The notes beneath the pieces are model-generated. The model worked only from the letters and a program-made list of their open reading frames with translations, had not been told where the DNA came from and ran no database searches. DNA of 64,000 bases from an uncultured Gammaproteobacteria bacterium (GTDB lineage: Bacteria > Patescibacteriota > Patescibacteriia > Magasanikbacterales > UBA922): the NCBI GenBank assembly GCA_964522405.1, contig CAZFTR010000002.1:8032-72031 (forward strand), in the 5' to 3' direction. A program made the translations under genes and the position numbers. Shown here piece by piece: positions 5,246 through 57,544 of this stretch (positions are counted from its first letter, which is position 1; each line of letters starts with the position of its first letter).

Positions 5246-5332
5246 TGGTTTAAATATAGTTTTCAAATCTGATTCCTTTGCTCAGATTTTCTCCTCTTTT
5301 CACCAATAGTTTTGATGAAAATAGGGGATTGG

Positions 5333-5372
5333 GCCGAGGTTCGCGGTGGATTTGACAGGTGCGAACCTCGGC
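5333..5372 (-). terminator. GC-rich hairpin downstream of the GC-island gene
   Basis: Perfect 12-bp inverted repeat GCCGAGGTTCGC/GCGAACCTCGGC with a 16-nt loop, located 37 nt after the stop at 5409 and followed on the minus strand by a T-rich tract. Confidence 0.55.
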
Positions 5373-5408
5373 ATTCGATCATGGTGGGTGTGACGAAAAG
5401 TGTGACGA

Positions 5409-8507: not shown

Positions 8508-8848
8508 TTGGTCTTAGTCCTCGGAAATAGGGTAGTCGGCCAGGCCGCGTTTTTGGTAGCGACCAGATTCTTGGAATCAGAAATCGAAATCGGAAACTTG
8601 GTCTTGGGATTTTCGTCAATTAGTTTCAGGCAAATGAATATCTGCCCTCCGTATTAGAGAAACAAGAAATTGCAGATCTAATACGAAGAACAGAAAATTA
8701 CCTAAAATCCACCATGATATTGTAAAGAACTAAGAACTTACCCATAATTATTATGAGTAAATTCTATTAGAACTATACCTCAAAACTTGAGATTTAGAAC
8801 AGGCAAGTATAGCATGTTTTAGTGCTTTTGTCAAGCTAAATATGCAAA

Positions 8849-10842: not shown

Positions 10843-11175
10843 CTAGTCAGTATCAGACTCTGATTTTCTTTTTACTCTTTTTGCGCTTGGTGAGTAAAGA
10901 GTATTATTTATTTTCCACCTACCCACAAACTGTCCAATTCCTTTTTCATTACTTTTGTTCTTGACTGTGGTCTTGGATTGTGACCATTTAACTAGGCTTT
11001 CAAAATCTATTTTGTATCTTCCAGCCACTACTACATAATTTATTTCTTGTGCCTTTATGGCTCTTCTAATGGTCTGTGGATTAACTCCAAAAAGCCTTGC
11101 TGCTTCTGAAATTGAAACTCTGACTACCTCCTTTTGCTGTTTTAGAGGATTTTCATCCATATTTCTAGGTATCAA
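10843..11175 (-). CDS. HTH_17 (excisionase/MerR-like) DNA-binding protein
   Basis: 110 aa. SISEAARLFGVNPQTIRRAIK...RYKIDFESLVKW is the excisionase-family helix-turn-helix. Confidence 0.7.
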   Translation of the reverse strand: MIPRNMDENPLKQQKEVVRVSISEAARLFGVNPQTIRRAIKAQEINYVVVAGRYKIDFESLVKWSQSKTTVKNKSNEKGIGQFVGRWKINNTLYSPSAKRVKRKSESDTD

Positions 11176-18400: not shown

Positions 18401-20002
18401 GCAAGTAGTGCTGACACTGATTTGACAAGCTTTATGCTAGTTGATTCAGAAGATGGTACTCAATATGGTGTTACTAAGAACCTTACAAATGGTACAGCTG
18501 ATTACGCAACATTTAGTGGTATTGATAATCTAACTGTCCCAATGGGTGACACAAAGATTCTATACGTAAAAGCAAATGTTGACGGATCTTCTGGTACTTA
18601 TTATGTAGGTACTGCTGCTATTACAAATATTGTTGCTGCCGGTAAAGTTTCCGGTACTTCAGCAACTATTTCTGGTACAGGTAGTGGTGCTGCTAATGCT
18701 ATTCAATCTGTTGCTACATTGACTTTTGCTACTGACGCTTCTAACCCAAGTGAAAGAGTAATGGCAGTTGGTGCAAGTGGAAATAGTGATCCAGAAACAA
18801 TGCTAGTAATGTCTGTTGACGGTCTTTACGAAGATGTTGATATTACTAAGCTTGTATTCCGCATGAATGCAGCTACTGGTGACTCTGCACAGAACTTCTT
18901 TGCTGATAATGGTCTAAAACTTTATCACAAAGTTGGTACAGGTAGTGAGAAACTAATTGATAGTGCTCCTATTGTATCTTCTACTGCAGCTGTTCTTGGA
19001 GCTTACTATACAGCTACATTCAACATCACTGAGGGTGATCTAAGAGTTGGAGAATCAGATGATAATTTGTTAGTACTTAAAGCTAAATTCAAAGGTACAG
19101 CTGGAAGTGCTCTAACATCTGGTACAAGTCCAAGCTTTATCTTCGGTGACAGCACAAATGCAAATGACAGCTTATTCATTGAAGCTAAAGGTGTAAGTTC
19201 ACAAACAGCACTTGATGACGCACAATACAACACTACAAGTGGTTTGAATGTTGCTGGTAATCAAATTGTTGCTTACAAAGCTTACCCAACATTCACTTAC
19301 GTAAATCCAGGTACTACTCTAGTAAATGGTAGTGAGAACAATGTATACAGATTCAAAGTTAAAGCTAATGGTGGTAATGTTGCTCTTAAACAATTATCAT
19401 TTACTATTGACGTAGTTGATAATGTAGGAACAACAAATGCTGCTGCAACAGCAGACTTTGGTCTTCACACTTGGAAGCTATACCGAATTTCAAAAGACGG
19501 TACAGCTGAAAATACAGATCTTACAGACAATGTTGCTTTGATTACAAATGCAAATGCTAGCATCGAAGGTTCTACAAATGTGCTTGCTACATCATCTGCT
19601 AACACTATCTACTCTGTATGGACAGGTACAAATGAAGAGCAAGTTCCATCAGGAAGTGAATACACTTATGAACTTCGCGCAACTTCAGTTGGATTCTCAA
19701 CTGATGCTGACAACGATTACATTCGTGTACGTCTAGCTAACAGCGACACTACTGAGTTGACACAAAACGATTCTCCATATTATCTAACTGCTAACTCTGA
19801 TTACAGTGATATTATAGAATTGGGTGATTCTAGCCAGGCTAATACAAGTACAGCTACTTTGGTATGGTCTGATAGAAATGCCAATGGACACTCAGCAGCT
19901 ACTGGTACTTATGCCGGTGGTACAGCTACTTCAACAGGTGACTGGTTTAACGGGTACAAGATTAAAGATACTCCAACAAACTACTCACAGTTGGTACGCT
20001 AA
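15491..20002 (+). CDS. large secreted cell-surface protein (S-layer/adhesin-like, T/G/A/V-rich beta-repeat architecture)
   Basis: 1503 aa. Signal peptide MNDMKKFGKKLFTGVVTGLTAFSMSFGAFLPAVVHAAEE. Low-complexity T/S/G/A/V-rich sequence throughout with recurring ~100-aa segments. Strong terminator downstream. Sits after the sigma/anti-sigma pair. Confidence 0.7.
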   Translation: MNDMKKFGKKLFTGVVTGLTAFSMSFGAFLPAVVHAAEECPSVQAGDLIKTTEKSDVYYIDANMKRMPFLNSEVFLSHYEDWTGVMAIPPSCISSFLPSTGVVYRPGSRLFKTEVDAAVYAVLPGNKAYHLADPDVATALYGADWEKSLRTVSDSFTLALNFDASQKLDMSVPHAGQLVKTEGDDVYYVSAEGKLQKVEGDLAAGLAADVETVSQTVFDAAEMDDAANTVTASSLLGNPDTVTTTSGDTDAGDTDGDTDTPAAAGTLTVTLAGNTPAPGYVAKGAYNAEFAKFVFKATGGDVRVDKIVIKRDGLGVDADIDAVRLYDGAMQLGSDQALNTNTHLATFKNLNWDLSSGDEKTLTVKADTNSSPSGTNDYFEISELELEGEGSLTADLPLAGNALQYHSVTMGVLDVNDLTSPGATTVISGATDVQVQCLNFDTNSAEGFDVKSIKLTNNGTIGNSQINKFVLKQGADVLATVDGGFESDGTVTFDMNDSPYYIAKSKSKDLCVYVDIAEGISLTTRTIIMNLAEAKDVVAVGDSSKGQVVITIDDATPFTEQTGQTMTVDQGTLTVAFNTATAPVAADLVDGVAGNKLGAFKFTAGSTEGMKVTRFRLTASGTGVAAADLSNFELFVYDPDTSEETQVGSSQSMSGLNVTFEDTVDGLFDVAAGKNVIVHLYGDVNTAATWTGSTTVAGMNLYVGGTNTNLIVKAKGLKSEKFVAAGDITLSSVNQNDTGVVQFGNSDNGALVISLDNSAPGATSISTGVTDYDFAHYRLYATGEDVNVTQLVVRAYNTSGTGSTASTTGDITNVKLYDITDADNPVQVGTTVASPALGVSTFSFTMTVPKDSYKVLKAVADIPTGSGSDFMHLDVPGAGTVADDISSTGAYSGIDITETGSATGRLMTVATPTITVSWASGATNNVVTNANGVTLGALQLTAGQYENVKVTSIKIEASSSTVASGNFAEGASSADTDLTSFMLVDSEDGTQYGVTKNLTNGTADYATFSGIDNLTVPMGDTKILYVKANVDGSSGTYYVGTAAITNIVAAGKVSGTSATISGTGSGAANAIQSVATLTFATDASNPSERVMAVGASGNSDPETMLVMSVDGLYEDVDITKLVFRMNAATGDSAQNFFADNGLKLYHKVGTGSEKLIDSAPIVSSTAAVLGAYYTATFNITEGDLRVGESDDNLLVLKAKFKGTAGSALTSGTSPSFIFGDSTNANDSLFIEAKGVSSQTALDDAQYNTTSGLNVAGNQIVAYKAYPTFTYVNPGTTLVNGSENNVYRFKVKANGGNVALKQLSFTIDVVDNVGTTNAAATADFGLHTWKLYRISKDGTAENTDLTDNVALITNANASIEGSTNVLATSSANTIYSVWTGTNEEQVPSGSEYTYELRATSVGFSTDADNDYIRVRLANSDTTELTQNDSPYYLTANSDYSDIIELGDSSQANTSTATLVWSDRNANGHSAATGTYAGGTATSTGDWFNGYKIKDTPTNYSQLVR

Positions 20003-28865: not shown

Positions 28866-31655
28866 ATGAAAAAAACAAAATTTAGTTCTTTGCTAAGAAG
28901 AGTAAGAATGATTGGTTTGTTTGTGATTTTGCTGGCAGCCGGTCTTTTTTTTCAAACAGGCACGGTTAAGGCTGAAGTATGTACTTGGAGTACCTCTACT
29001 CCTGGTGCCAATATCAGTGATGCCAGCAGTTGGGCGGATTGTACTTTGAGTTCAGATGATACTTTGCTGTTTGGTGCCACAACAACAGCCGCAACTTGGG
29101 ATAGCGGTCTAATCCAAATTGCAGGTGTTTCGACTACACCGGAATATACAGGTACTATCACTTTGGGTACCAATGTTTCCAGTACAGGGGATGTGTTCAT
29201 TGGATCAGCTACCACTTTTGATCTTGGTGCTTACAGTCTTGATGTGGCCGGTGATTTTTTGAATTATGGGAATGTTAGTCAATCCGCAGGCTACACCGGG
29301 ATGAGCGGAAATTCCAATTTGGGTGGCTCGGGCAGGACCCAACTTTTCGCTTTTTTAGTTAATAATTCCAATACTGTTACTTTTTCCGGAGATGTTGTTG
29401 CTTCTTCAACCATAACAATCGGTAGTGGATCGACATTGATTTTGGGAGCCAATGGATTGCAATTTGGAGGTGCTCTCTCAAACTCCGGATCGATTACCCA
29501 AACTGCCAGTTCCACTTTCATGACCGGAGACGCTAACATTGGCGGCTCAGGAAGAACCCAACTTTTTGCTTTTACCGTAAGTCATTCAGATGGAGTAGAT
29601 GCTACTTTGGTGGGTGATTTGGTTGTTTCCTCCACCTTAACTATTGGTAGTGATGTTAATTTGGCTCTGGGAGCCAATGGATTGCAATTTGGAGGTGCTC
29701 TTGCCAACTCCGGATCGATTACCCAAACTGCCAGCTCCACTCTTATGACCGGAGACGCCAACATTGGTGGTTCAGGAAGAACCCAACTTTTTGCTTTTAC
29801 TATAAGCGCTTCCAACGGAGTAGACGCCACTTTGGTGGGTGATTTGATTGTTTCTTCAACATTGACTATTGGCAGTGATGTTAATTTGGCAATGGAAGCC
29901 TATGGACTTGAAGCAGGTGGTGCTATTACCAATTCCGGAGCCATAACTCAAACTGCCAGTTCAACAATCATGACCGGCAGTGCCAATTTGGGTGGTTCGG
30001 GAAGAACTCAATTTTTTGCCTTTACAGCTGACAATTCCAATACTGTTACTTTTGCCGGGGATGTTGTGGCTTCCTCAACTATCACAATCGGTAGCGGATC
30101 GGCATTGACTATGGGAGCCTATGGATTGCAATTTGGCGGTGCTCTCTCAAACTCCGGAACAATTACCCAAACTGCCAGTTCAACAATCATGACCGGCAGT
30201 GCCAATTTGGGTGGTTCGGGATCAAGCAGTTTCTTTAATTTAACCCTTAATGAGACCGTGACTTTGACCGGAAGTGTGACTTCCACCAATGCCTTTACTA
30301 ACAGTGGTGCTCTTACTATCTCTGACAGTGTAAATTTAGTTGCTTCAGGAACTTTTAATAACGATGGAACAATTACAGAAACAGGTGCTATTATACATGC
30401 TCTAACTTCTTCTAAGTTTACAGACACTTCCGGGACAGAAGTAACATCTTATAATACAGGTTCTGATACTTTATTTATTACGGTTGAAGATCATGACGGT
30501 AATCTCGATGCAACTGCGCTTGATACCATAACCGGATCAGTATATACAGCCAATGATGGTGTGGTAGATCAAGAAAGTATGACATTAACCGAAACAGGTG
30601 TTGATACAGGTGTTTTCCGTAGTTCAATCGGTTTTACGCCTTCTGCTCAGAAAACCCAGAACAATGGTAAAATTGAAGTTAATGGAGCCGGAAGTTTAGC
30701 TCTAACCTTTACTGATTCAAAGGACAGTACTGATACCGGAACTGATACGGCAAATTATACCGGTAGTTCGGTTGGTTCAGGTGGTAGTCCGGTTAGCAAT
30801 CCTGTCACGGAATCGACCACTGATGACACTGCCACTGAAACAAATACAACAGATACTACTACTGATGACAGTACTGCAGACACAACCACTGATGACACTG
30901 CTACTGATGAGGAGATAGTTGATGATGTTATCACTGATGATGCCACAGAAGAAGTTGTTGATCCTGAAGAAAAAGAAGCCGAGTCTGATCAAGAAGAATC
31001 AGCTCCGGAAGCAATTTCAGAAACATCATCATGCCCTCTTTTGACCGGACAGCCTTATAAAACACTTGATTCAAATACTGTTTATTATATAACTGAAAAT
31101 TGTACAAAATCAGTATTTAGAAGCGCAGAGAAATTTTTCTCTTATTTTACCTCCTGGGATGTGGTTAAAAATGCTTCACATAAAAATCTAAGAGAGATTT
31201 CGACTGATCAGCTTGGTTTTATGCCTTGGGGTCCTTTGTATGATCCTCAATTCGGAGCTTTGGTAAAGATTGCAAAAGATCCAAAAGTGTACTTGCTTTT
31301 AGGTAATGAAAAGTATTGGATTACATCAGAAGAGGTTTTTAATGCTTTGTATGATGGGCGATGGAATTGGATTGAAACAATTGATAAAAGTCTCTTAGAT
31401 AAATACGCAACCGGTTCTGAAATTAATTATCAGGATCATCATCCAAATTATTCTCTTATAAAATATCAAAATTCAAATAAAATATATCGCTTGGAGCCCG
31501 ATCCAAATGATAGTACAAAACAAGTAAAGCGACACATAATTGATGAAAAGACTTTTGTATCTCTTGGATTTAGATGGGATAGAATTGTGGATATTGCTGA
31601 CAGTGAAATATATGCTGATGGAAAAACTATTACTTTGGATGCGGGGGCTGAGTAA
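28866..31655 (+). CDS. secreted surface protein with ~73-aa tandem repeats, T/D-rich linker and C-terminal globular domain
   Basis: 929 aa with a signal peptide. Five copies of ...GANGLQFGGALSNSGSITQTASSTxMTGDANIGGSGRTQLFAFT..., then a Thr/Asp-rich acidic linker (TTDDTATETNTTDTTTDD...), then a ~230-aa C-terminal domain. Confidence 0.65.
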   Translation: MKKTKFSSLLRRVRMIGLFVILLAAGLFFQTGTVKAEVCTWSTSTPGANISDASSWADCTLSSDDTLLFGATTTAATWDSGLIQIAGVSTTPEYTGTITLGTNVSSTGDVFIGSATTFDLGAYSLDVAGDFLNYGNVSQSAGYTGMSGNSNLGGSGRTQLFAFLVNNSNTVTFSGDVVASSTITIGSGSTLILGANGLQFGGALSNSGSITQTASSTFMTGDANIGGSGRTQLFAFTVSHSDGVDATLVGDLVVSSTLTIGSDVNLALGANGLQFGGALANSGSITQTASSTLMTGDANIGGSGRTQLFAFTISASNGVDATLVGDLIVSSTLTIGSDVNLAMEAYGLEAGGAITNSGAITQTASSTIMTGSANLGGSGRTQFFAFTADNSNTVTFAGDVVASSTITIGSGSALTMGAYGLQFGGALSNSGTITQTASSTIMTGSANLGGSGSSSFFNLTLNETVTLTGSVTSTNAFTNSGALTISDSVNLVASGTFNNDGTITETGAIIHALTSSKFTDTSGTEVTSYNTGSDTLFITVEDHDGNLDATALDTITGSVYTANDGVVDQESMTLTETGVDTGVFRSSIGFTPSAQKTQNNGKIEVNGAGSLALTFTDSKDSTDTGTDTANYTGSSVGSGGSPVSNPVTESTTDDTATETNTTDTTTDDSTADTTTDDTATDEEIVDDVITDDATEEVVDPEEKEAESDQEESAPEAISETSSCPLLTGQPYKTLDSNTVYYITENCTKSVFRSAEKFFSYFTSWDVVKNASHKNLREISTDQLGFMPWGPLYDPQFGALVKIAKDPKVYLLLGNEKYWITSEEVFNALYDGRWNWIETIDKSLLDKYATGSEINYQDHHPNYSLIKYQNSNKIYRLEPDPNDSTKQVKRHIIDEKTFVSLGFRWDRIVDIADSEIYADGKTITLDAGAE
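29442..30200. repeat. coding tandem repeats (~219-225 bp period, 4-5 copies, imperfect)
   Basis: gggagccaatggattgcaatttggaggtgctct recurs at about 29442, 29661 and 30113, with a divergent copy near 29890. Not CRISPR: it is in-frame coding sequence with no spacer/repeat architecture. Confidence 0.7.
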
Positions 31656-40283: not shown

Positions 40284-40345
40284 ATTTTTTTATTTAATTA
40301 CTCGCTTATTTTAGCAAAAAAAAACAAGCTCGGCAATGCTTGTTG

Positions 40346-40380
40346 GCCGCCTGCCTGACTGGAATCGTCAGGCAGGCGGC
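40346..40380 (-). terminator. GC-rich terminator hairpin following the GC-rich NUDIX gene
   Basis: Perfect 14-bp stem GCCGCCTGCCTGAC with loop TGGAATC and GTCAGGCAGGCGGC. On the minus strand it is followed by a second small hairpin CAAGC-attgccga-GCTTG and T9. Confidence 0.7.
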
Positions 40381-40411
40381 TCATGCTGCTGCGTTACTTG
40401 CTCTCGACATC

Positions 40412-40897
40412 CTAGTCGATTTGGGCCAGTGCGATCACTTCGTGGTGATGCGAAACCGTGTCCATTGGCAGGTGGCGTGGGTCTACCCACCCTCCCGGCA
40501 TCTTGGGGTTCATGTCGAGTTCACCGAGAGTAACCTTGATGACCTGGCCGTAGAACCAGCCACGCTCCTCCTGATAGAAGAAGCCGGACTTGAGAGATCC
40601 GCGGCCATCGAGATCCAGGCCGAGCTCTGCTTGCCCGAGCCGGATCAAAGCCTTGTGGAAGTCCTCGCCAGATCGAAGAACCGTGCCCGGACAGTGCAGC
40701 TGTCCAGCGTACGAATCCCCACTTCGGCGGCGAGTCATCCAGACTTTTGGGTGATGCTGAACGGTTTTGACGACCACGACCTCAATGCACATTGTTGGTA
40801 CCAGCCGCGCAATGGCATTGAAGAGTTCAGGTCCGAGTGGATCTTTCGGATCGAGTTGCTTAAGGAACGCAGCAGCAGCTTCTCTCGTGTCGATCAT
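40412..40897 (-). CDS. GDP-mannose mannosyl hydrolase-like NUDIX hydrolase (Gmm/WcaH-like), GC-rich xenolog
   Basis: 161 aa from ATG 40897; the ORF-track start at 40954 is a TTG extension into AT-rich DNA. PGTVLRSGEDFHKALIRLGQAELGL closely resembles E. coli Gmm [25 protein letters not shown]. It is homologous to the adjacent native gene (ELFNAIARL, YAGQLHCPGT, ERGWFYGQVI). Roughly 60% G+C against about 30% for its neighbour. Confidence 0.8.
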   Translation of the reverse strand: MIDTREAAAAFLKQLDPKDPLGPELFNAIARLVPTMCIEVVVVKTVQHHPKVWMTRRRSGDSYAGQLHCPGTVLRSGEDFHKALIRLGQAELGLDLDGRGSLKSGFFYQEERGWFYGQVIKVTLGELDMNPKMPGGWVDPRHLPMDTVSHHHEVIALAQID

Positions 40898-40980
40898 TTG
40901 TTGACTCCTTGAGCTGCTGGATTTTAGACTAGCATAATTGTATAAAAAAATCAAGCCTACAGCCTGATTTTGTTTAGATT

Positions 40981-41484
40981 TTATTTGATCTTGTTTTTTA
41001 CTGCTGGCAAGATCCTATCTTTGTGATGTTTTACAAGTGGAACAGGTAATTTATTTATGGGCCACCACTGACCAGCTTTTGTTGGATCAGACTTTATTTC
41101 TATAGTATATATAATTGATTGAAACCAGCCACGTGCTTCATCATGAAAAAAATGCCCCACGTATTTGGGTTGGTTTTTGATAGTTGTACCCATTTCATTT
41201 TTTAAAACCCTTTTGATTGAATCTATTTCAAGTTCACCTTTTCTGATAATTGTTCCTGGGCAGTGCCATTCGCCGGCGTAGCAGTCTGAATTTGATCTTT
41301 TTGAAAGCCAGACATATGTTTGATCTTTTTCTTTTTTTAGAACAACTGCTTCAACTGTGGAGGTAGTGTATAATCTTGCTATCGCTTCAAACAATTCTTT
41401 TCCCAGATTTTCTTTTGGTTTGATTTGGTTGAGAATTTGAGCAGCTTGTTTTTGTAGATTTTCTGACATAAGATTTGTATTCAT
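40981..41484 (-). CDS. GDP-mannose mannosyl hydrolase-like NUDIX hydrolase (Gmm/WcaH-like), native AT-rich copy
   Basis: 167 aa from ATG 41484 (the ORF-track start is TTG). ELFEAIARLYT, YAGEWHCPGTIIRKGELEIDSIKRVLKNEMG, EARGWFQSIIYTIEI. Overlaps the rfbG stop by 1 nt. Confidence 0.75.
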   Translation of the reverse strand: MNTNLMSENLQKQAAQILNQIKPKENLGKELFEAIARLYTTSTVEAVVLKKEKDQTYVWLSKRSNSDCYAGEWHCPGTIIRKGELEIDSIKRVLKNEMGTTIKNQPKYVGHFFHDEARGWFQSIIYTIEIKSDPTKAGQWWPINKLPVPLVKHHKDRILPAVKNKIK

Positions 41485-42557
41485 CAATTATTACTATTAA
41501 AAAATAAATCAATTTGTTTCTTTGTGGTATTTTTTATATTTTCATCTTCATAAAAATCTCTATACCAGTCCATGGTTAGTCGGAGAGTTTCTTCCAAGTT
41601 CAGTTTTGGAGACCAGGCAAGTTTTTCTTTTGCCTTTCCAATATCAAGTCTTAGTATTCCTGCTTCATGTCTTTTTTTATCCGGAATAATTTTGTAAGAG
41701 CCTTTTTGAGAAGTGCTTATTGCTTTTTTTACCAGTTCTTCCACGCTACAACTTTCTTGATCTTCCGGGCCAAAATTCCAAGCTCCTACAATTTCTTTTT
41801 CCCCTTGAAAAAGCTTTTTAGCTAAAATCATGTATCCGTTTAGTGGTTCGAGAACATGTTGCCAGGGGCGAATAGCATTTGGATTTCTTATTATTATTTC
41901 TTGATCATCCTCATAAATAGCTTTGATAATATCAGGAATCAATCTATATTCTCCCCAGTCTCCGCCACCAATCACATTTCCAGATCTGGCTATGGCTATA
42001 AGTGCCTCGTGACCTGCATCAGGTTTTTCAGGGTTGAAAAATGATTGAATATAAGATTGGGTAGTTATGTCTGCCGCTGCCTTGCTGGCACTATAGGGAT
42101 CATAACCTCCAAGAGCATCTTCTTCCTTGTAAGCGATTTCTTGTTCCAGATTTGCATAAACTTTGTCTGTGGTAATGATAACAGCAGATTTTACAGTTTT
42201 TGAATTGCGCAAGGCTTCCAGTAAATTGGCTGTGCCGATTACATTGCTTGAGTAAGTTTCTAGTGGATTTTCATAGCTTGGTCTGACAAGTGCTTGAGCT
42301 GCCAGATGAAAAACTATTTCTGGTTGATGTTCTTGAATTAAGTCATTTAGTTTTTCAAAATTTCGAATATCAACAATAGAGTGTTTAATTTTCTTTTCTA
42401 AATCTAAAGCTTCGAACATGCTATGCTTGCCGGTCATTGGTAGAGAGATGCCAACTACATCTGCACCCCAATTTGTCAAAGTATAACTAAGCCAGGATCC
42501 CTGAAATCCGGTATGGCCGGTAATTAATATTTTTTTATCTTTGAAAAAATCTTTCAT
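41484..42557 (-). CDS. rfbG: CDP-glucose 4,6-dehydratase
   Basis: ILITGHTGFQGSWLS, IVFHLAAQALVRPSYENPLETYSSNV, GGYDPYSASKAAAD, SGNVIGGGDW and IIRNPNAIRPWQHVLEPLNGY are collinear with Salmonella RfbG/DdhB. Confidence 0.95.
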   Translation of the reverse strand: MKDFFKDKKILITGHTGFQGSWLSYTLTNWGADVVGISLPMTGKHSMFEALDLEKKIKHSIVDIRNFEKLNDLIQEHQPEIVFHLAAQALVRPSYENPLETYSSNVIGTANLLEALRNSKTVKSAVIITTDKVYANLEQEIAYKEEDALGGYDPYSASKAAADITTQSYIQSFFNPEKPDAGHEALIAIARSGNVIGGGDWGEYRLIPDIIKAIYEDDQEIIIRNPNAIRPWQHVLEPLNGYMILAKKLFQGEKEIVGAWNFGPEDQESCSVEELVKKAISTSQKGSYKIIPDKKRHEAGILRLDIGKAKEKLAWSPKLNLEETLRLTMDWYRDFYEDENIKNTTKKQIDLFFNSNN

Positions 42558-49969: not shown

Positions 49970-50617
49970 ATGTCTCAATTTTCGAAAATAGATCTAAATG
50001 GTACAAAAGGAATTTTGCTTGATTTTGATAATGCACTTTATAAATATGATCCATGCCATCAACATGCTCTCGATTCAGTGTATTTTGAAATCAAAAAACA
50101 TCTAGATGTCGAGTCTTTTGAGCAATTTTTGGATTTTTATAAAAAAGCACAAAAAAAGGTTAAGGCAAATATACCTGACAGAGCTGCTTCACATTCAAGG
50201 TTGCTTTATTTTCAAATTTTGTTTGAAGACTATTTTGGACATGTGAAAGTTGGTTTAAACTTACAGTTTGAAAAACTTTATTGGAATTCATTTTTTGAAA
50301 AAATGGTTCTGGCAGATGATGTGTTAGATTTTCTTGAAAAGTGTAAAAAAGAGAGCATTAGAATATGTGTTGTGACTGACCTGACTGCGCAAATTCAGTT
50401 TAAGAAATTTTTACATTTGGGTCTGGAAAAGTATTTTGATTTTGTAGTTAGTTCAGAAGAAGCAGGAATGGAAAAACCTGGTGAGGGAATTTTCTTGCTT
50501 GCATTACAGAAGCTGGGAATGAGCAAAGACGATGTTTTGGTAATAGGGGACAGTAAAAAAAGGGATATAGCAGGCGCAGAAAATCTTGGCATAAGAAGCC
50601 ACTTAATAGAATTATGA
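49970..50617 (+). CDS. HAD-superfamily hydrolase/phosphatase
   Basis: Motif I ILLDFDNALY (DxD), motif II VVTDLT, motif IV GDSKKRDIAGA. Confidence 0.8.
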   Translation: MSQFSKIDLNGTKGILLDFDNALYKYDPCHQHALDSVYFEIKKHLDVESFEQFLDFYKKAQKKVKANIPDRAASHSRLLYFQILFEDYFGHVKVGLNLQFEKLYWNSFFEKMVLADDVLDFLEKCKKESIRICVVTDLTAQIQFKKFLHLGLEKYFDFVVSSEEAGMEKPGEGIFLLALQKLGMSKDDVLVIGDSKKRDIAGAENLGIRSHLIEL

Positions 50618-52761
50618 TAAAGGGTTTTTCAAAAAAATACCTGCATGACAAAACCGGAAAATTTAAACTGGACATTCTGAAATCCCGTATTTTTCTTTCA
50701 GTTCTTGGTTTGAAGATAGTATCTTCTTTTTTATTTGCTTCAAATTACTTAACAGAATTGTTTGCTCGCTTTGTAAACTACTTTGTGGTCAGTGGATTTC
50801 AAAATCCATACCAGTTTTTCTACAATCTGGATATTTTAAATGTTTTTCCATATCCACAAGTAATGCTTTGGATATTAGCCATACCTAGATTTTTATTTAG
50901 TCCATTTCTCAGTGCAAATTATCTTGATGTTAGCTTTTTGGATTTATTTGTTTATAGAATTCCAGTCTTATTAGCTGATACAGTTATTTTGGTGGTCTTG
51001 GCTCGCTGGCTCAAAAACAAGCAAGATAAATTATTAAAATATTATTGGTGTTCACCGATTTTATTTTATATAAGTTATATTCATGGGCAGCTCGACGCTC
51101 TTCCAATAATGTTATTATTTTTATCGCTCTATCTTTTATTCAAAGAGAGGTTTTATTGGTCAGTTGCTTTGCTCGGTTTGGCAATTTCTGCTAAAACAGG
51201 TTTGCTAATTGTATATCCTTTTGTGTTGGTCTATTTCTTGCTACAAAAAATAAGAATTAGAGAAATAATTGCACTAGCTTTAGTGCCAGTTTTGGTTTTT
51301 TTAATCTTTAATATTAATTATCTATTTACTCCTGCTTTTATTGAATTAGTTTTAAATACCAAAGAGCAATTTAAAATTTTTGATTTTAAATATCAAATTG
51401 GCGGAGATTTTGTGATTTATTTTGTACCACTTGCTTATTTTGTATTGTTTGTTAAAAGTTTGACTTATCGGGTATTTAACAAGGATGTTTTTTTGATGTT
51501 TTTAGGATTTAGTTTTGGTATTTTGACTTTGTTTATTCCGCCGATGCAGGGTTGGTATTTTTGGATAATTCCTTTTTTTATTTATTTTTATATAAAAGAA
51601 GAAAATGCTCCAAAGTTTACTTTTATTCTTTTGAATTTATTTTATTTCTTGTATTTTCTAGTTGTCAAAAATTCAGATTATTTGCAGGTTTTTCAGTTGA
51701 TTTTGCCAAGTCTGGCAGCCAAGCAAAATCTCTATCATTATCTAAGTGGATTAGGGATAAATGCTCAAGTTTTGGTGAATACCATTTTTACTCTATTGCA
51801 AGCAACTTTGCTTTTAAATATTCTCTGGATTTATAAAAAAGGAATTGAATCAAATACTAATTACAAAATTAAATACCAGCCATACTTGATCGGCATAGCA
51901 GGGGACTCAGGAAGTGGAAAAAGTATTTTGTCTGATTTGATGATAAATAAATTTGGCCATAAAAATACTTTACTTCTTGAGGGTGATGATATGCATAAGT
52001 GGGAGCGTGGAGATAGAAATTGGCAGGAGTTTACTCATCTTGATCCAAGAGCAAACAAATTGCATGATGATCTGCAAAGCGCTTTGAAGCTAAAAAAAGG
52101 AGATAAAATTAAGAGAAGTATTTATGATCATAGTACTGGAAAATTCAGACTTCCTAAAAAAATTGAATCTAAAAAAATAATTCTTTTCCAGGGTTTGCAT
52201 TCATTGTATTTAGAAAAAATGAGAAATCTTTATGATCTGAAAGTCTTTTTAAAACCAAGTGAAGATCTGCGATTGCATTGGAAAATAGTTAGAGATACCA
52301 AAGATAGAAATTCAGAACGTCAAAAAGTTGAACAACAGATCAAAGATAGAGAATCAGATGCCAAGAGGTATATTCAAAAGCAGCAAGAACATGCAGATAT
52401 TGTAGTTTCTTTTGAAAATAAAAAAGAAATTACTAATCTGGGAGATAAAAAGGAAGATATTAGTTTAGCTTTGAAAGTTAAATTTGAAAATGGCATTGAT
52501 ATAGATCCTTTACTTCATGAGCTCGACAAGTTGGGTTCAATAAAATACCAACATCTACATCAAACAGACAGTCAATATCTGGAATTTCACGGAAAAATTA
52601 GCAAAGAAAAAATAGATAAAATTGCTTATGGTCTGATGCCAGATCTGTGGGATATTTTAAATATTGAGCCAGATTGGAGCAGTGACCTCAATGGAATTTT
52701 GCAGTTATTCATTTCTTATTATATTTTTTATAAAATGAAAATTGATGAGTATGCAGGATGA
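50614..52761 (+). CDS. fusion protein: N-terminal polytopic membrane domain (DUF2029/GT-C-like) plus C-terminal PRK/uridine-kinase-family P-loop kinase domain
   Basis: About 430 aa with at least 10 TMs, then IGIAGDSGSGKSILSDLMINKFGH...LLLEGDDMHKW...IYDHSTGKF...IILFQGLHSLY, a phosphoribulokinase/uridine kinase family (Walker A GxxGSGKS) domain. Confidence 0.65.
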   Translation: MIKGFSKKYLHDKTGKFKLDILKSRIFLSVLGLKIVSSFLFASNYLTELFARFVNYFVVSGFQNPYQFFYNLDILNVFPYPQVMLWILAIPRFLFSPFLSANYLDVSFLDLFVYRIPVLLADTVILVVLARWLKNKQDKLLKYYWCSPILFYISYIHGQLDALPIMLLFLSLYLLFKERFYWSVALLGLAISAKTGLLIVYPFVLVYFLLQKIRIREIIALALVPVLVFLIFNINYLFTPAFIELVLNTKEQFKIFDFKYQIGGDFVIYFVPLAYFVLFVKSLTYRVFNKDVFLMFLGFSFGILTLFIPPMQGWYFWIIPFFIYFYIKEENAPKFTFILLNLFYFLYFLVVKNSDYLQVFQLILPSLAAKQNLYHYLSGLGINAQVLVNTIFTLLQATLLLNILWIYKKGIESNTNYKIKYQPYLIGIAGDSGSGKSILSDLMINKFGHKNTLLLEGDDMHKWERGDRNWQEFTHLDPRANKLHDDLQSALKLKKGDKIKRSIYDHSTGKFRLPKKIESKKIILFQGLHSLYLEKMRNLYDLKVFLKPSEDLRLHWKIVRDTKDRNSERQKVEQQIKDRESDAKRYIQKQQEHADIVVSFENKKEITNLGDKKEDISLALKVKFENGIDIDPLLHELDKLGSIKYQHLHQTDSQYLEFHGKISKEKIDKIAYGLMPDLWDILNIEPDWSSDLNGILQLFISYYIFYKMKIDEYAG

Positions 52762-53782
52762 GTTGTTAAAAGAATTAGTGGAAATTTCTCATATTATTGG
52801 TCAAAAGTCTGATTTTGTTCAAGGTGGTGGGGGAAATACTTCTGTGAAAATCGATGAAAATACCATGGCCATCAAAGCTTCTGGTTTTAATTTGTCTGAC
52901 ATTAGAGAAGATGATGGTGTTGTTTTGGTTGAACATCAGAAAATCAAAAGTTATTATCGAGAAAATTCAAACAGTCTAACTGAAGATCAGGCAATTTCTT
53001 TTAACAGATCAACTGTTTTAAAATCAGATTTATCTGAAGATTTACGACCTTCAATTGAAACAGGTTTTCACGCTTTGCTGGATAAGTTTGTTATTCATTC
53101 TCATTCAGTTTATGTAAATATAGTATCTTGCGCAGAAGGCGGAGAAGGTATTATGCATAAGATTTTCAAAGATTCAGATCTAAATATACTTTGGCTAGAT
53201 TACTTTAGCCCGGGTTTATATCTAACTCTCGGCATGAGTCAACTTTTGGGTAATTATCATAAATCAGAATTTCCAGATGCAGTATTTATGAAAAATCATG
53301 GATTAGTTGTAAATGCAAAAACTTCTCAAAAAGCAGTAGAAATTCATCAAGAGATAAATAGTACAATAAAAAAATATTTTAGCTTAGATAAAAATTATCC
53401 ACAAATTGAAATCAAACAGCTCAATGAAAACCTATATCAAAGTAATTCAGAATATCTACTGAATTTCTTAAGACAAAATCCAGATAAAATTAAAAATTTT
53501 CCAAAACAGATTTTATTTCCTGATCAGGTTGTTTTTGGTGATGATATTAGTTTTCAGGGTTTACAGGAAAATAAGATAAACTTTGACTTAGAAGAAAACC
53601 AGGTTTTTTATAAGGCTAGTAAAAAACAAGCCAAGACAATTGAAGAATTACTAATTGCTTGGATTTTCATAATTGAGAATATTGAAAATCAGGGATTGCA
53701 ATTAGAAATTTTAAATAATGAACAAGTAGAATATATTAGGCAGATGAGTAGTGAAAAATATCGCAAAAAATTAATAAAATAA
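52742..53782 (+). CDS. class II aldolase/adducin-fold protein (extended, 346 aa)
   Basis: HIIGQKSDFVQGGGGNTSVKIDENTMAIKASG resembles the GGNxS substrate-phosphate loop of class II aldolases/epimerases. The C-terminal ~130 aa is unassigned. Confidence 0.5.
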   Translation: MMSMQDELLKELVEISHIIGQKSDFVQGGGGNTSVKIDENTMAIKASGFNLSDIREDDGVVLVEHQKIKSYYRENSNSLTEDQAISFNRSTVLKSDLSEDLRPSIETGFHALLDKFVIHSHSVYVNIVSCAEGGEGIMHKIFKDSDLNILWLDYFSPGLYLTLGMSQLLGNYHKSEFPDAVFMKNHGLVVNAKTSQKAVEIHQEINSTIKKYFSLDKNYPQIEIKQLNENLYQSNSEYLLNFLRQNPDKIKNFPKQILFPDQVVFGDDISFQGLQENKINFDLEENQVFYKASKKQAKTIEELLIAWIFIIENIENQGLQLEILNNEQVEYIRQMSSEKYRKKLIK

Positions 53783-53847
53783 AAATATCTTGAGTAGAGA
53801 TATTTTTTTTAAAATTCATTTAAAATTTAGCACATAGGCAGGGGGTC

Positions 53848-53860
53848 GTGTCACTCTCCT
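53848..53860. repeat. left 13-bp inverted repeat GTGTCACTCTCCT bracketing GC-island 3
   Basis: Perfect reverse complement of 54951-54963 (AGGAGAGTGACAC). An imperfect extension to about 22 bp shares CCCC. Confidence 0.8.
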
Positions 53861-53877
53861 CGATCCCCCTTGGTAGC

Positions 53878-53920
53878 TGCCCGCTATGCGGGCCTTCTGG
53901 TTGTGGCTGGCCGCTGCCAG
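53878..53920 (-). terminator. two GC-rich hairpins downstream of GC-island 3 gene
   Basis: GCCCGC-TAT-GCGGGC (53878-53892) and GGCTGGC-CGCT-GCCAGCC (53903-53920), immediately after the stop at 53922. Confidence 0.5.
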
Positions 53921-53921
53921 C

Positions 53922-54926
53922 CTAGTAGTCCTTGGTGAGGAGCGAGCCGGCGCCGTAGGACTGGTCGAAGGCGTTGGCTGCTCGGGTCAGCATCGTTACC
54001 ATCGAAGTCCGGCGCGCCACCACCCAGCCCTGACGGTGATGCATGTCCTTGAGCTCCGCGTTGGCGGCGTTCCCGACGAGCGGTCGGCCGTAGATGTTGC
54101 GCGGCCTGGTCATGTGGCCGCTCTGGGAGAAGGGGCCGATAGGGTCGGTGTCCCAGGTCTTCCAGTCGGGCTGGCGGTTGAAGATGGCGTTGATCCAGTC
54201 GAGCTCGGCGAAGGCCGGCAGGTCTTCCGGGTTCTCCGGCTCGAAGACGCTGCGCAGGAACTGCAGGATCTGGGTGCCGGCACCTCCCACCGGAACCTGA
54301 ATGACCTCGACGCCCTTCTGAAGCAGGAAGGCAGGGAACTCGATGTCTCCGTAGTTCTGCGGGTAGGAGCGCCGGATGCCGATCCGCGGGACAGAGGTGG
54401 TGTCGACTTCGGTCCGCTTGAGCTTGACCTCGACCCAGTTGCCCGCCTGGTCGGCTTTCCCGATCTTGCACTCGCCGCCCATGATGATGGCGGCGTACTC
54501 GCCGAGCACGTCGAAGATCAGGCCGACCCTGGACATGAAGTTTCGGGAGAGCTCCGTGCGCTCGAGCAGGCTGACCAGAGTGGTCGGGCCAATCAGCGCG
54601 TCGGTGCCCGCGGTCTTCACAGCGTCGCCGGTCCCGTCACAGGGATCGACCTGGAAGGCCTTGAGGGCGAAGGGCCGCAGCCCCGAGTCCGCTTCCTCGG
54701 AGAACGAGGCCGGATGCAGGGCCGAGAGCCCACCGAACTCGCCGTTGCCGTTGAGGATGAAGCTCGAGGCCGAGAGATCCATGTTGGTCACCACTTCGCC
54801 GAGGTCGGCGCCGTGGTCGATGACCTGGATACCCTTCTTGCCGAGAGCCGGCTTGATGGCGGCTCGTGTCGCCGTCACGACCAGGGGAAAGACCACCTGG
54901 GTCATGACATCGAAAAGATTCTTCAA
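53922..54926 (-). CDS. hypothetical enzyme of unidentified family, encoded by high-GC island (possible metal-dependent sugar-phosphate enzyme; DPxDGT-like motif)
   Basis: 334 aa. The ORF-track start is TTG at 54926, preceded by AGAGGA SD, with an alternative ATG at 54905. Roughly two-thirds G+C. Contains FQVDPCDGTGDAV and IIMGGECKIGKA, but no confident family match. The antisense 348-aa ORF (53886-54932 +) is a GC artefact. Confidence 0.6.
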   Translation of the reverse strand: MKNLFDVMTQVVFPLVVTATRAAIKPALGKKGIQVIDHGADLGEVVTNMDLSASSFILNGNGEFGGLSALHPASFSEEADSGLRPFALKAFQVDPCDGTGDAVKTAGTDALIGPTTLVSLLERTELSRNFMSRVGLIFDVLGEYAAIIMGGECKIGKADQAGNWVEVKLKRTEVDTTSVPRIGIRRSYPQNYGDIEFPAFLLQKGVEVIQVPVGGAGTQILQFLRSVFEPENPEDLPAFAELDWINAIFNRQPDWKTWDTDPIGPFSQSGHMTRPRNIYGRPLVGNAANAELKDMHHRQGWVVARRTSMVTMLTRAANAFDQSYGAGSLLTKDY

Positions 54927-54950
54927 TTCTGATCCTCTTTGAGGGGTTTT

Positions 54951-54963
54951 AGGAGAGTGACAC
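54951..54963. repeat. right 13-bp inverted repeat AGGAGAGTGACAC bracketing GC-island 3
   Basis: Reverse complement of 53848-53860. Lies about 25 nt upstream of the TTG start. Confidence 0.8.
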
Positions 54964-55091
54964 TTGAAATGTACTGGCTATATATAAGCATAAATTAGCC
55001 AAATTGTCAAATATATGAAGAGTCTAAAAACTTGCATTTTTAGTGAAAAAATGTATAATGTAGAGACTAATTTAATGGATTTTTTGGCTCT

Positions 55092-56006
55092 ATGAAGGTG
55101 ATAATTCCCATGTCAGGAGAGGGAAGTAGATTTATAAAAGTTGGCTATACTGTACCCAAGCCAATAATCAGGGTTGATGGAGTTCCAATCATTGAACATG
55201 TCATAGATCTCTTCCCTGGAGATAGTGATTTTGTCTTTGTTTGTAGAGAGGAACATCTGAAAAATACCAATGTTAAGCAAATCTTACTCAATAAATGTCC
55301 TAATGCTCAAATAGTTTCAGAAGTGGGTAGAAAACTAGGTCCAGTGGCTAGTGCTCGAAAAGCCTATGATTATATAGATGATGATGAAGAAGTGATAGTA
55401 AATTACTGTGATTTCTTCATGGCTTGGGATTATGAAGACTTTAAGAAGTTTGTCAGAGGATCAGAATGTGATGCCTGCTTACCAGCTTATACCGGTTTTC
55501 ATACTCATTTATTGCATCCTGAAAATCTCTATGCCAGTATGATAACTGGCCCGGATGGATTTATGACGGAAATCAGAGAAAAATATAGCTTTACTGAAGA
55601 TAAAGCTCTATCTCGCCACTCACCTGGAACTCATTATTTCAAAAAAGGAAAATATGTCAAGAAATATTTTGATCAGCAAGTAGAGCAAGATGTAAATCTC
55701 AATGGAGAATACTATGCCAGTATGACTTTTAATCTTTTAAAAGATGATGGATTGAAAATTTCAGTTTATGATAAAATTCCGCATTTCTGCCAGTGGGGAA
55801 CTGCTCGCGATTTAGAAGAATACGAAGCTTGGTCAAGATTATTTGCCAAAGAGTCAGGAAAAGAAAAAGGCCATACTGACATTCCAAGTTCAAGAGAAGA
55901 TAAAATTAAAATTCCATTTGAAGAAAATTCAGAGCAATATCAAAAATCATATAATTATTGGAAAAAGTTTTTTTCAGATTTTAAATATCATCCATTTAAT
56001 AAATAA
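55092..56006 (+). CDS. sugar-phosphate nucleotidyltransferase-like (NTP_transferase/LicC-like fold)
   Basis: MKVIIPMSGEGSRFIKVGYTVPKPIIRVDGVPIIEHV is the glycine-rich NTP-binding loop and activator motif of the nucleotidyltransferase family. Confidence 0.65.
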   Translation: MKVIIPMSGEGSRFIKVGYTVPKPIIRVDGVPIIEHVIDLFPGDSDFVFVCREEHLKNTNVKQILLNKCPNAQIVSEVGRKLGPVASARKAYDYIDDDEEVIVNYCDFFMAWDYEDFKKFVRGSECDACLPAYTGFHTHLLHPENLYASMITGPDGFMTEIREKYSFTEDKALSRHSPGTHYFKKGKYVKKYFDQQVEQDVNLNGEYYASMTFNLLKDDGLKISVYDKIPHFCQWGTARDLEEYEAWSRLFAKESGKEKGHTDIPSSREDKIKIPFEENSEQYQKSYNYWKKFFSDFKYHPFNK

Positions 56007-56015
56007 TACTAGAAT

Positions 56016-56843
56016 ATGGCAAATATAATGCCAATGGCAGGTGAGGGTTCAAGATTTAGTGGAGCTGGTTACAAATTACCAAAAGCTCTAATTCCGGTTT
56101 CAGGAAAACCAATGATTGTAAGAGTTATAGAATCATTACCTGAATCTGATAAAAATATTTTTATAGTTCGACAGGAGCATATTGATGATTACAAAATTGA
56201 TGAACTTATAAAAAGCGCGGTTGAAGGCGCGGTTATTGTGCCAGTTTCAGAAACTACAGAGGGACAAGCTTCAACTTGTATGCTAGCTATGCCTCATCTC
56301 GATCCTGAAGATGATATGTTTATTGCTGCCTGTGACAATAGTTTTGTTTTTGACAAGCAAAAATACCAGGATTTAATAAGTGATTCCAGTGTAGATTCAA
56401 TTATTTGGACTTTTACTCAAAATCAATTGCTAAAAGATAAGCCAGAAGCATGGGGCTGGATAAAACTAGAGGATGATGGTTTAACTATTGATGACATGTC
56501 AGTAAAAATTCCAGTGTCTGAGGATCCTTTCAATGATCATGCTGTTGTGGCCACTTTTTATTTCAAAAAAGCCAGCGAATTTGAAGAAGCTTATAATTTG
56601 ATGGTAAAAGAAGATTATCGAGTAAACGGCGAATTTTATGTTGATTCTATGCCGGTATTTTACAAAAAACTTGGCAAGAGAAGTGTGATATTTGATGTTG
56701 ATCTCTATATTGGTTGGGGTAAGCCTCAAGATCTCTATGATTATCAGGAAAAAGAATATAATTATTTGCATCACAGGGAAAAGTTTAATCAAGACAAAGA
56801 TGCAGATAAATGGTCTGGATTTTTTATTGAGTTACCTAATTAA
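56016..56843 (+). CDS. sugar-phosphate nucleotidyltransferase-like, paralog of preceding gene
   Basis: MANIMPMAGEGSRFSGAGYKLPKALIPVSGKPMIVRVI has the same signature. Confidence 0.65.
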   Translation: MANIMPMAGEGSRFSGAGYKLPKALIPVSGKPMIVRVIESLPESDKNIFIVRQEHIDDYKIDELIKSAVEGAVIVPVSETTEGQASTCMLAMPHLDPEDDMFIAACDNSFVFDKQKYQDLISDSSVDSIIWTFTQNQLLKDKPEAWGWIKLEDDGLTIDDMSVKIPVSEDPFNDHAVVATFYFKKASEFEEAYNLMVKEDYRVNGEFYVDSMPVFYKKLGKRSVIFDVDLYIGWGKPQDLYDYQEKEYNYLHHREKFNQDKDADKWSGFFIELPN

Positions 56844-56851
56844 TTGGTTTT

Positions 56852-57544
56852 ATGTTAAAAATTGCTAAGAAAAGCCATTTCCTTCAAGAATTAGTAGTGA
56901 AAATCATAGCTTCTATTCATCCGTCAATTGAGCATAATATTGATAAGGTTAAAATGCTTAAAAAAGCTTTTTTTCATTGTGAATTGGAAGAAATTGAAGG
57001 AGCTTATTTTGAATTTGGTACTTATGAAGGAACTTCTCTATATGCAGCAGTGCAAAATCATCGAAAAATAAAATCAAAAATTCCTAGAAAATTTTATGGT
57101 TATGATTCATTTGATGATGGATTTAAATATTTCAATGAAAAAGATCAGCATCCTTTTTTCAAAGAAGGAGATTTTGTAAGTTCATATGAGAAAGCAAAAA
57201 AACGTTTTAAAAAATTTAAAAATGTAGAGTTGATAAAAGGATATTTTGAAGAAACAGTTGGCGGAAAAGATATTAGCCAAATGTATCCGGGTGAAAAATG
57301 CGCCATTATTTTTATAGATTGTGATCTCATGGGTCCTGCACTGGTTTCTCTTGAATTTATTAAGCCTATTTTGCAAAGAGGTTCAGTAATTGTATTAGAT
57401 GATTTTTGGGCATATAGGGGAGATAACAAAAGGGGTACTCGTGGCGCATTGGGAACATTTCTCAAAGATAATCCAAATATCAAGCTGAGAGAATATTATA
57501 ATTATGGACATGGTGGAAAATCATTTATTGTTTCCGAGATTTAG
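56852..57544 (+). CDS. TylF/MycF-family (macrocin O-methyltransferase-like) SAM-dependent methyltransferase
   Basis: FEFGTYEGTSL...IIFIDCDLMGPALVSLEFIKPILQRGSVIVLDDF is the typical Methyltransf_24/TylF pattern. Confidence 0.7.
   Translation: MLKIAKKSHFLQELVVKIIASIHPSIEHNIDKVKMLKKAFFHCELEEIEGAYFEFGTYEGTSLYAAVQNHRKIKSKIPRKFYGYDSFDDGFKYFNEKDQHPFFKEGDFVSSYEKAKKRFKKFKNVELIKGYFEETVGGKDISQMYPGEKCAIIFIDCDLMGPALVSLEFIKPILQRGSVIVLDDFWAYRGDNKRGTRGALGTFLKDNPNIKLREYYNYGHGGKSFIVSEI

Follow-up and report, generated by a model that had tools for sequence, protein, structure and literature searches.

A foreign, high-G+C phosphatase gene in a nucleotide-sugar operon of an uncultured Patescibacteriota bacterium: probable replacement in situ rather than a demonstrable mobile cassette

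How does a single G+C-rich gene come to lie in the middle of an AT-rich operon, and was it carried there by a mobile element? This question is raised by a 64-kb stretch of DNA (hereafter, the window; positions 8,032 to 72,031 of contig CAZFTR010000002.1, assembly GCA_964522405.1) from an uncultured bacterium that GTDB places in the Patescibacteriota (Magasanikbacterales, UBA922). The stretch contains an island of ~1.13 kb (53837-54963; island C), in which one phosphatase gene is framed by a short inverted repeat (IR). A preliminary description of the locus, made from the letters of the sequence, took this gene for the passenger of a non-autonomous mobile cassette. Our results favour a different answer, namely a recent xenologous replacement by a phosphatase of the inositol monophosphatase (IMPase) fold and not a demonstrable transposon, and we put the probability of this reading at roughly three in four. 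Both the process and the fold superfamily are known; what the locus adds is a fresh, sharply bounded case.

The island is foreign to the host genome and its junctions are authentic. Composition profiles give it 63-65% G+C (63% over 53821-54980 and 64.7% for the coding sequence, CDS) compared with ~32% for the whole window, and the shift is abrupt at both ends. The G+C content at third codon positions (GC3) is 0.887 in the phosphatase gene vs 0.20-0.25 in the neighbouring PRK, aldolase, NT304 and NT275 genes, and its relative synonymous codon usage is anti-correlated with that of host genes (r -0.43 to -0.64). An abrupt change of composition at both ends, in a metagenomic source, is also what an assembly chimera would produce, with a high-G+C fragment of another organism mis-joined into a low-G+C contig. 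We give this explanation almost no credence. From each of the separate read sets SRR8146440 and SRR8146441, whose assembly was independent of the window, one Logan contig matches it at 100%, over 53686-55712 and 53483-55470, respectively. Both span both junctions, run uninterrupted through the two IR arms and show a single, identical orientation. Inspection of the sequence revealed no repeat shared by the junctions that could have caused a mis-join in the assembly graph, and the gene is the one functionally expected in this slot. Since the junctions of this island, and likewise both junctions of another one in the window (island B), are reproduced in the contigs from SRR8146440 and SRR8146441, mis-assembly was rejected.

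Within these bounds the island is laid out like a transcript, with a short 5' untranslated region (UTR) carrying a Shine-Dalgarno (SD) sequence, the CDS and three hairpins, and without a G+C-rich promoter. The single minus-strand gene and the SD AGAGGA ahead of a TTG start are as previously described, and this start is backed by the N-termini of the homologues, which in the family alignment also begin ~7 residues ahead of a conserved Met. The hairpin terminators of that description are likewise present, but there are three GC hairpins rather than two.

Which enzyme does the island encode? The protein falls below all thresholds in Pfam and NCBIfam, including the gathering threshold of PF00459 (inositol monophosphatase family), and it had been said to fit no family. 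The structural comparison that had been proposed as a check gives it one. Using the AlphaFold2 (AF2) model (pLDDT 85, pTM 0.89) as a Foldseek query against the PDB, we found that the top 50 matches are all IMPase, SuhB, FBPase, CysQ or histidinol-phosphate phosphatase structures (E 1e-12 to 3e-8), with target-normalised TM scores of 0.50-0.76 for the top matches. Moreover, the metal-binding motifs FSEE (residues 75-78), DPCDGTGD (94-101) and WDTDP (258-262) are invariant across the family, whose profile aligns two metal-binding motifs to the PAP phosphatase 5djf and the bisphosphate nucleotidase 1jp4. Because of these fold matches and motifs, we assign the protein, by its predicted fold, to the IMPase/FBPase superfamily as a divergent member outside the curated sequence family. 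PF00459 is detectable in five of ten family members, with E values down to 1.1e-5. The family is small: only 10 relatives were found among 5.8 billion clustered proteins, and when 1.84 billion representatives were searched exhaustively with a profile, ~30 full-length members came up, followed by a tail of ~280-aa proteins. Members also occur in metagenome-assembled genomes (MAGs) of Saccharibacteria, Woesearchaeota and Nanoarchaeota. All 51 invariant columns of the family alignment, among them FSEE, DPxDGTGD, GGAG, QPDWKTWDTDP and DMHH, are kept in the island protein, which looks catalytically intact and is expected to be functional as a Mg-dependent phosphatase of sugar phosphates.

The phosphatase is a regular member of the operon in which it was found. 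In the window, the gene order is HAD, PRK-like kinase fusion, class II aldolase-like gene, island, NT304, NT275 and TylF-type methyltransferase, and the Pfam matches of the open reading frames (ORFs) confirm the sugar-modification gene set described earlier. This is a conserved operon of Patescibacteria, DPANN archaea and some other genomes, composed of HAD, PRK-like kinase, aldolase-like, IMPase-fold phosphatase and two nucleotidyltransferase genes, sometimes with a TylF-type methyltransferase gene. A JGI metagenome contig with flanks of 26-28% G+C (L003) shows the same order and a co-oriented phosphatase homologue in the slot. A Patescibacteria MAG of 54% G+C (L016, H51-bin222_1) has the full order including the methyltransferase, again with a co-oriented phosphatase. 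In L017 (Parcubacteria), L021 and L023 the phosphatase lies in a partly matching, rearranged operon, and the L021 orthologue is divergently oriented.

The closest relatives of the host (L024-L027) were found via NT304. In L027, the closest of them, the order is aldolase, a 365-aa phosphatase, acyltransferase, NT304 and NT275. Identity between the window and L027 is 64% for the aldolase, 71% for NT304 and 84% for NT275, and only 43.5% for the phosphatase; the L027 phosphatase gene is co-oriented with its operon and has 40% G+C and a GC3 of 0.29. L024-L026 are very close to the window (82% for the PRK-like kinase, 89% for the methyltransferase and 70-79% for downstream genes), but the aldolase-like gene of the window is only 38% identical to theirs. 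DNA homology to L024 ends at 52955 and restarts at 55158. Listed by genome, the slot holds a phosphatase (L003, L016), a phosphatase together with an acyltransferase (L027) or a GT2 (L024-26). The centre of the operon is accordingly a variable region, with genes exchanged between lineages. No low-G+C copy of the phosphatase gene was found in the 64-kb window, and the AT-rich spacers hold no remnants of a deleted native gene.

In agreement with the composition of the island, the gene and its neighbours are phylogenetically discordant: the flanking genes are 64-84% identical to those of L027, as opposed to 43.5% for the phosphatase, which groups with high-G+C homologues. In a neighbour-joining (NJ) tree of 37 family members, the island protein falls within a high-G+C group (P0002-P0007, P0013, L016) whose members have GARP/FYMINK values of 1.65-1.9 and come from native surroundings of 50-62% G+C. 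P0008 and P0011, syntenic orthologues of low G+C content, lie outside this group. Since the nearest homologues, which include a Patescibacteria MAG of 54% G+C, are 47-48% identical and have a GC3 of ~0.72-0.74, the donor is unsampled and probably of still higher G+C content.

Slot and operon comparison, together with the evidence of foreign origin, argue for xenologous gene displacement in situ. Because the gene lies in the slot where relatives keep their own version, we read the locus as a gene replacement rather than as a demonstrable jumping cassette. This low-G+C genome has no native phosphatase at the slot and carries, instead, a distant homologue from a high-G+C lineage. The gene is reversed with respect to the operon, with a candidate terminator hairpin rich in AT on one side and the downstream genes on the other. 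In the donor it would have lain between two copies, in inverted orientation, of a palindromic, terminator- or REP-like (repetitive extragenic palindrome) unit, of which the downstream copy would have arrived complete and the upstream copy would have been cut by the transfer breakpoint. The AT-rich hairpin is a candidate bidirectional terminator for both convergent genes, and the island gene is probably transcribed from AT-rich DNA just beyond the right end of the island. A perfect TATAAT stands at 55054-55059 on the plus strand, ahead of NT304. From this arrangement of terminator, promoter and TATAAT, the former operon seems to have become two units, to which the foreign gene adds a third, convergent one. 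As for the enzyme, its fold, and the fact that a kinase and two nucleotidyltransferases regularly accompany it, suggest that it would take one phosphate off a phosphorylated sugar intermediate ahead of nucleotide activation. The analogy is with the synthesis of nucleoside diphosphate (NDP)-heptose, which runs on a kinase, GmhB and nucleotidyltransferase logic.

Several points weigh against replacement in situ. The slot of L024-L026 holds a GT2 glycosyltransferase, with no phosphatase within ~10 kb; the ancestral state of the slot is hence not unanimous, and a gain into a vacant slot is possible. No mechanism accounts for a gene too diverged for homologous recombination reaching exactly this slot. 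The NJ tree carries no bootstrap support values, and the donor is not among the sampled sequences, the nearest homologues being only 47-48% identical. Similarly, no repeat family with the sequence of the palindromic unit was found in JGI metagenome contigs or IMG/VR. The candidate promoter TTGACA-18-TATATA (54981-55010) was read by eye and we propose it with little confidence, since a consensus promoter scan reported no minus-strand promoter here. Finally, a 13/21-nt IR at the ends would be expected of a transposon or an invertible element as well.

What, then, is the IR? The perfect 13-bp repeat with an imperfect extension that was noticed first is indeed present: its arms (53848-53868 / 54943-54963) are 21 nt long and complementary at 18/21 positions (86%), with a perfect 13-nt core, GTGTCACTCTCCT/AGGAGAGTGACAC, of which the rest of the window contains no copy, even with two mismatches allowed. 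The accompanying claim, that such a pairing is very unlikely by chance, holds for its position and fails for the bare 13-mer. We shuffled 2.2 kb 2000 times, keeping the AT/GC/AT mosaic and the dinucleotide content. A perfect IR of at least 13 nt arose anywhere in 145/2000 shuffles (~7%), which makes the bare 13-mer unremarkable; an IR of at least 10 nt anchored no more than 30 nt from both island ends arose in only 10/2000. In addition, the energy of the end-to-end (5'/3') RNA duplex was reached in 1/1000 shuffles. On the strength of the anchored shuffles and the duplex energy, chance was rejected for the terminal position. The terminal IR is thus real and non-random. Another perfect 13-nt IR, between the SD and start region of the island gene (54926-54938) and the inside of the NT304 gene (55455-55467), is probably a chance occurrence, since an unpositioned IR of this size is present in ~7% of shuffles.

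The two arms are asymmetric with respect to the island ends. The right arm reaches the island edge; outside the left arm there are 10-11 further G+C-rich foreign bases (GGCAGGGGGTC), and this arm lies within a hairpin. The hairpin is a complete 29-nt palindromic unit (GGGGGTCGTGTCACTCTCCTCGATCCCCC). In a side-by-side comparison, the right arm looks like this unit copied in inverted orientation with its outer stem half missing, and it stops exactly where the foreign DNA stops. The upstream copy looks as if its outer stem half had been cut off at the island boundary. As the simplest reading, we tentatively regard the IR as two inverted copies of a palindromic terminator- or REP-like unit of the donor, a possibility that we hold at less than even.

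The IR may also work as an RNA element, pairing the 5' and 3' UTRs to close the mRNA and to control the stability or translation of the foreign gene. Such an element could have been imported with the gene or selected after the transfer, and it would be compatible with replacement in situ rather than exclusive of it. In the mRNA, the 5' arm, ~5 nt from the SD, would pair with the 3' arm and join the UTRs. Folding of the full-length transcript (1146 nt) yields a 13+4-bp helix that closes the ends in both the minimum free energy (MFE) and the centroid structures, with the rarely matched duplex energy given above. Island B contains a similar IR (40384-40399 / 40862-40877; 16 nt, 94%), which pairs the 5' CDS with the 3' UTR just ahead of a terminator hairpin. 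Its geometry equals that seen in island C, the predicted MFE structure of the transcript includes it, and, at 33/1000 shuffles, it is marginally non-random. Nevertheless, we consider an RNA function unlikely. Island A, the third of the window, shows nothing comparable (859/1000 shuffles), and neither a bracketing IR nor UTR pairing was found at the homologue loci of L006-L008 and L016, which are native high-G+C contexts, or of L017 and L020. The island has no match to known RNA motifs or Rfam, and the local hairpin at 53841-53869 competes for the 3' arm.

Could the island nevertheless be mobile? As a non-autonomous transposable cassette, similar to mobile insertion cassettes (MICs) or miniature inverted-repeat transposable elements (MITEs), it would consist of 21-nt IRs mobilised in trans by the transposase of an insertion sequence (IS) located elsewhere, with the phosphatase as passenger. 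The non-random terminal repeat with its perfect core, the clearly foreign segment and the lack of a transposase inside, as in MICs (PMC4337579), are what such a cassette would show. We find this explanation quite unlikely, however, given the behaviour of the ends and the surroundings. No target-site duplication (TSD), sought as a direct repeat of 3-12 nt with an offset of up to 3, is present, whether the insert is taken to end with the IR or where the G+C content changes. The earlier observation that the island holds no transposase extends to the entire window, where none of the 49 ORFs has a transposase, integrase or recombinase domain. Within the window, the IR core is confined to the two arms. 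In JGI metagenome contigs the IR pattern GTGTCACTCTCCTNNANCCCC has 7 matches, about the chance expectation, each of them an isolated site with no partner and no resemblance to the island beyond the pattern, and in IMG/VR it has no match. A repeated mobile element was rejected because the IR matches in metagenome and viral contigs are all unpaired and show no further homology. One of the 7 matches, at 684-705 of L013 (OLQC01000022.1, a 204-kb contig of 60% G+C), is a lone site agreeing with the left unit (TCGTGTCACTCTCCTgGATCCCCC) at 23/24 nt, which could have arisen by chance, as one of several pattern matches, or be a trace left by a repeat unit of the donor lineage. Furthermore, the left arm sits 10-11 nt inside the foreign DNA, in a hairpin, with the right arm at the edge, and the supposed passenger occupies its normal operon slot.

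An invertible element, or inverton, would explain other features. Here the IRs would be sites for a DNA invertase or for IR-mediated recombination, and the phosphatase gene would flip with and against the operon, resulting in a phase-varying surface glycan. The IRs bracket the SD, the CDS and the hairpins; the gene is co-oriented with the operon in most relatives and reversed in the window; and invertons are frequently tied to genes for cell-surface modification (PMC11892184). Still, the 64-kb window encodes no invertase or recombinase, both of the two independent assemblies display one orientation, unbroken through both arms, and inversion does not account for the foreign composition. The L021 orthologue, which is also divergently oriented, has no such IR. 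An inverton therefore seems very unlikely to us. An integron gene cassette was rejected as well, as there is no intI in the window and the three islands are isolated instead of arrayed; the island ends, judged by eye, are without the GTTRRRY core of attC. The window contains no tRNA that could serve as an integration site.

A more speculative proposal starts from the finding that joining the ends of island C recreates a palindrome with a 21-bp stem and a 10-nt loop; the IR arms could therefore each represent one half of a hairpin recombination site. All three islands could, on this view, have arrived by a route not yet described, in which genes from high-G+C donors enter the glycan locus of a candidate phyla radiation (CPR)-type bacterium one at a time, as promoterless units shaped like transcripts, at or beside the resident homologue. 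The hairpin site would belong to a circular or RNA-derived intermediate, opened at the junction of loop and stem. We regard this as highly improbable. Should it be true, it would provide a mechanism for gene displacement in situ, which has been called unclear in the literature (PMC1480536).

Altogether, the view of the gene as the passenger of a mobile cassette gives way to that of a regular operon member in its own slot. The direct repeats expected just outside the IRs of such a cassette are absent, and neither JGI metagenome contigs nor IMG/VR contain a second copy bracketed by the IR. The preliminary description had also foreseen its own undoing, by an IR that flanks no other element combined with a mis-joined segment. 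In the data searched, no other element flanked by the IR appeared; the segment itself is not a mis-join, as contigs cross the junctions at 100%.

Island C is one of three high-G+C single-gene islands of the window, and islands A and B are also on the minus strand, with SD and hairpins of their own (Table 1). The product of island A is a Cys-rich protein of 1032 aa with Dicty_CTDC repeats and an N-terminal signal-like segment, and a perfect 12-bp GC hairpin follows the gene at 5333-5372. No convincing terminal IR was found at this island. The codon usage of island A correlates with that of the phosphatase gene at r = 0.91, which suggests the same or a similar donor for both. The NUDIX protein of island B adjoins a low-G+C NUDIX paralogue on the same strand (40981-41487; 39% identity), and, with its foreign and native copies adjacent, the site may represent a displacement halfway through.

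Table 1. Positions of the features of island C, its operon and the other islands in the 64-kb window.
Feature	Position	Strand	Basis
High-G+C island C, horizontally acquired segment	53837-54963	none	composition profiles, sequence, both junctions in two Logan assemblies
CDS, 334 aa, TTG start, divergent IMPase/FBPase-fold phosphatase (predicted fold)	53922-54926	-	alignment, AF2, Foldseek, motifs, GC3
Shine-Dalgarno AGAGGA, 6 nt upstream of TTG	54933-54938	-	read from sequence
Left IR arm (GTGTCACTCTCCTCGATCCCC), 3'-UTR arm in mRNA	53848-53868	none	repeat search, shuffle tests
Right IR arm (GGGGTTTTAGGAGAGTGACAC), ends exactly at island edge; 5'-UTR arm in mRNA, ~5 nt upstream of SD	54943-54963	none	repeat search
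GC hairpin 1, overlaps stop codon by one base (GGCTGGC-CGCT-GCCAGCC)	53905-53922	-	read from sequence
GC hairpin 2, 3' of stop (GCCCGC-TAT-GCGGGC)	53879-53893	-	scan reported + strand; palindromic
Hairpin 3, complete 29-nt palindrome (GGGGGTCG-N12-CGATCCCCC), holds left IR arm	53841-53869	-	sequence
AT-rich host hairpin, 13-nt arms (92%), flanked by A/T runs, after aldolase-like gene	53778-53810	none	repeat search
Candidate host-type promoter TTGACA-18-TATATA for island gene, in AT-rich DNA ~18 nt outside island	54981-55010	-	by eye
PRK-like kinase fusion	50614-52761	+	Pfam; synteny with L003, L016, L024, L027
Class II aldolase-like gene	52742-53782	+	Pfam; synteny with L003, L016, L024, L027
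Nucleotidyltransferase NT304	55092-56006	+	Pfam, synteny
Nucleotidyltransferase NT275	56016-56843	+	Pfam, synteny
TylF-type methyltransferase	56852-57544	+	Pfam, synteny
Island A	~5301-8600 (CDS 5409-8507)	-	64% G+C, GC3 0.894
Island B	~40301-40940 (CDS 40412-40897)	-	55-57% G+C, GC3 0.64

The window as a whole is a surface-glycan biosynthesis region, with GT1, GT2 and GT4 glycosyltransferases, two Wzy_C proteins, GDP-mannose dehydratase-type enzymes, DegT, a flippase and methyltransferases. Its only domain reminiscent of mobile elements belongs to a 110-aa HTH_17 protein (excisionase-type helix-turn-helix; 10843-11175, minus strand), which lies 2 kb from island A beside a DUF11/CARDB surface protein; no recombinase partner was seen. 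The plus-strand ORFs 15491-20002 (1503 aa) and 28866-31655 (929 aa) have no Pfam match and a mildly elevated G+C content of 39-41%, and local G+C content rises to 45-49% at 29.0-30.8 kb. Exact-protein look-ups returned no record for the genes flanking island C or for the island A protein.

Across the family, the G+C content of the phosphatase gene exceeds that of its flanks in nearly every genome (L003, L016-L020, L022 and L027), with gene/flank values such as 0.36/0.27, 0.63/0.54, 0.45/0.36, 0.55/0.40 and 0.40/0.30. Either the amino-acid composition of the family or repeated transfer of the gene would explain this. The phosphatase of L020 (Saccharibacteria) resembles another island.

That operon genes can be replaced by transferred homologues of a divergence beyond the reach of homologous recombination has been recognised for two decades. 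The mechanism is still described as unclear (Price et al., 2006; PMC1480536), largely because the known cases are old and ameliorated. The locus reported here is an unusually fresh case, with base-sharp junctions, a native orthologue in a close relative and an incoming gene that has its own UTRs. In addition, unameliorated high-G+C genes in a 32% G+C genome of the episymbiont type may point to the donor, possibly to the physical host. The locus further identifies a rare and uncharacterised family of phosphatases as one of the integral steps in a nucleotide-sugar pathway common to CPR bacteria and DPANN archaea. With the IMPase/FBPase/CysQ superfamily (PF00459 and relatives) this family shares, by its predicted fold, the overall architecture, as well as the EE...DPxDGT and WD motifs. 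It differs in that the island protein is ~60-80 residues longer than canonical IMPases, in its own invariant motifs (GGAG, QPDWKTWDTDP, DMHH and a C-terminal K[DN]Y) and in forming a rare clade, of ~30 full-length representatives, tied to a nucleotide-sugar operon.

One of the closest known systems is the xenologous displacement of operon genes in situ (Omelchenko et al., 2003, cited in PMC1480536). There, too, one gene of a conserved operon is replaced in place by a distant acquired homologue among neighbours that look vertically inherited. Compared with those cases, the gene described here is unameliorated (GC3 89% vs ~22%) and inverted, has its own SD, hairpins and a terminal IR, and splits the operon into two transcription units instead of being co-transcribed. 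In MICs, passenger genes lie between IS-related IRs, are delimited by TSDs and are mobilised by a cognate transposase (PMC4337579). Like MIC231 and the TnXax1-derived elements described there, the island consists of a gene between short terminal IRs with no transposase inside; unlike them, it has no TSD, no cognate IS and no other copies in the data searched, and its IR arms are asymmetric. It resembles invertons in being flanked by IRs within a surface-glycan locus, with its gene antisense to the operon, and departs from them in lacking a nearby invertase, in the one orientation observed and in comprising a whole foreign gene instead of a promoter. Individual gene transfers into Patescibacteria, mostly from other Patescibacteria, are documented, and most of those detected are reported not to be recent (Gios et al., 2025; PMC12455944). 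The phosphatase gene is likewise a single-gene horizontal transfer into a streamlined, CPR-type genome, whereas its composition indicates a very recent event and the window holds three such islands in 64 kb.

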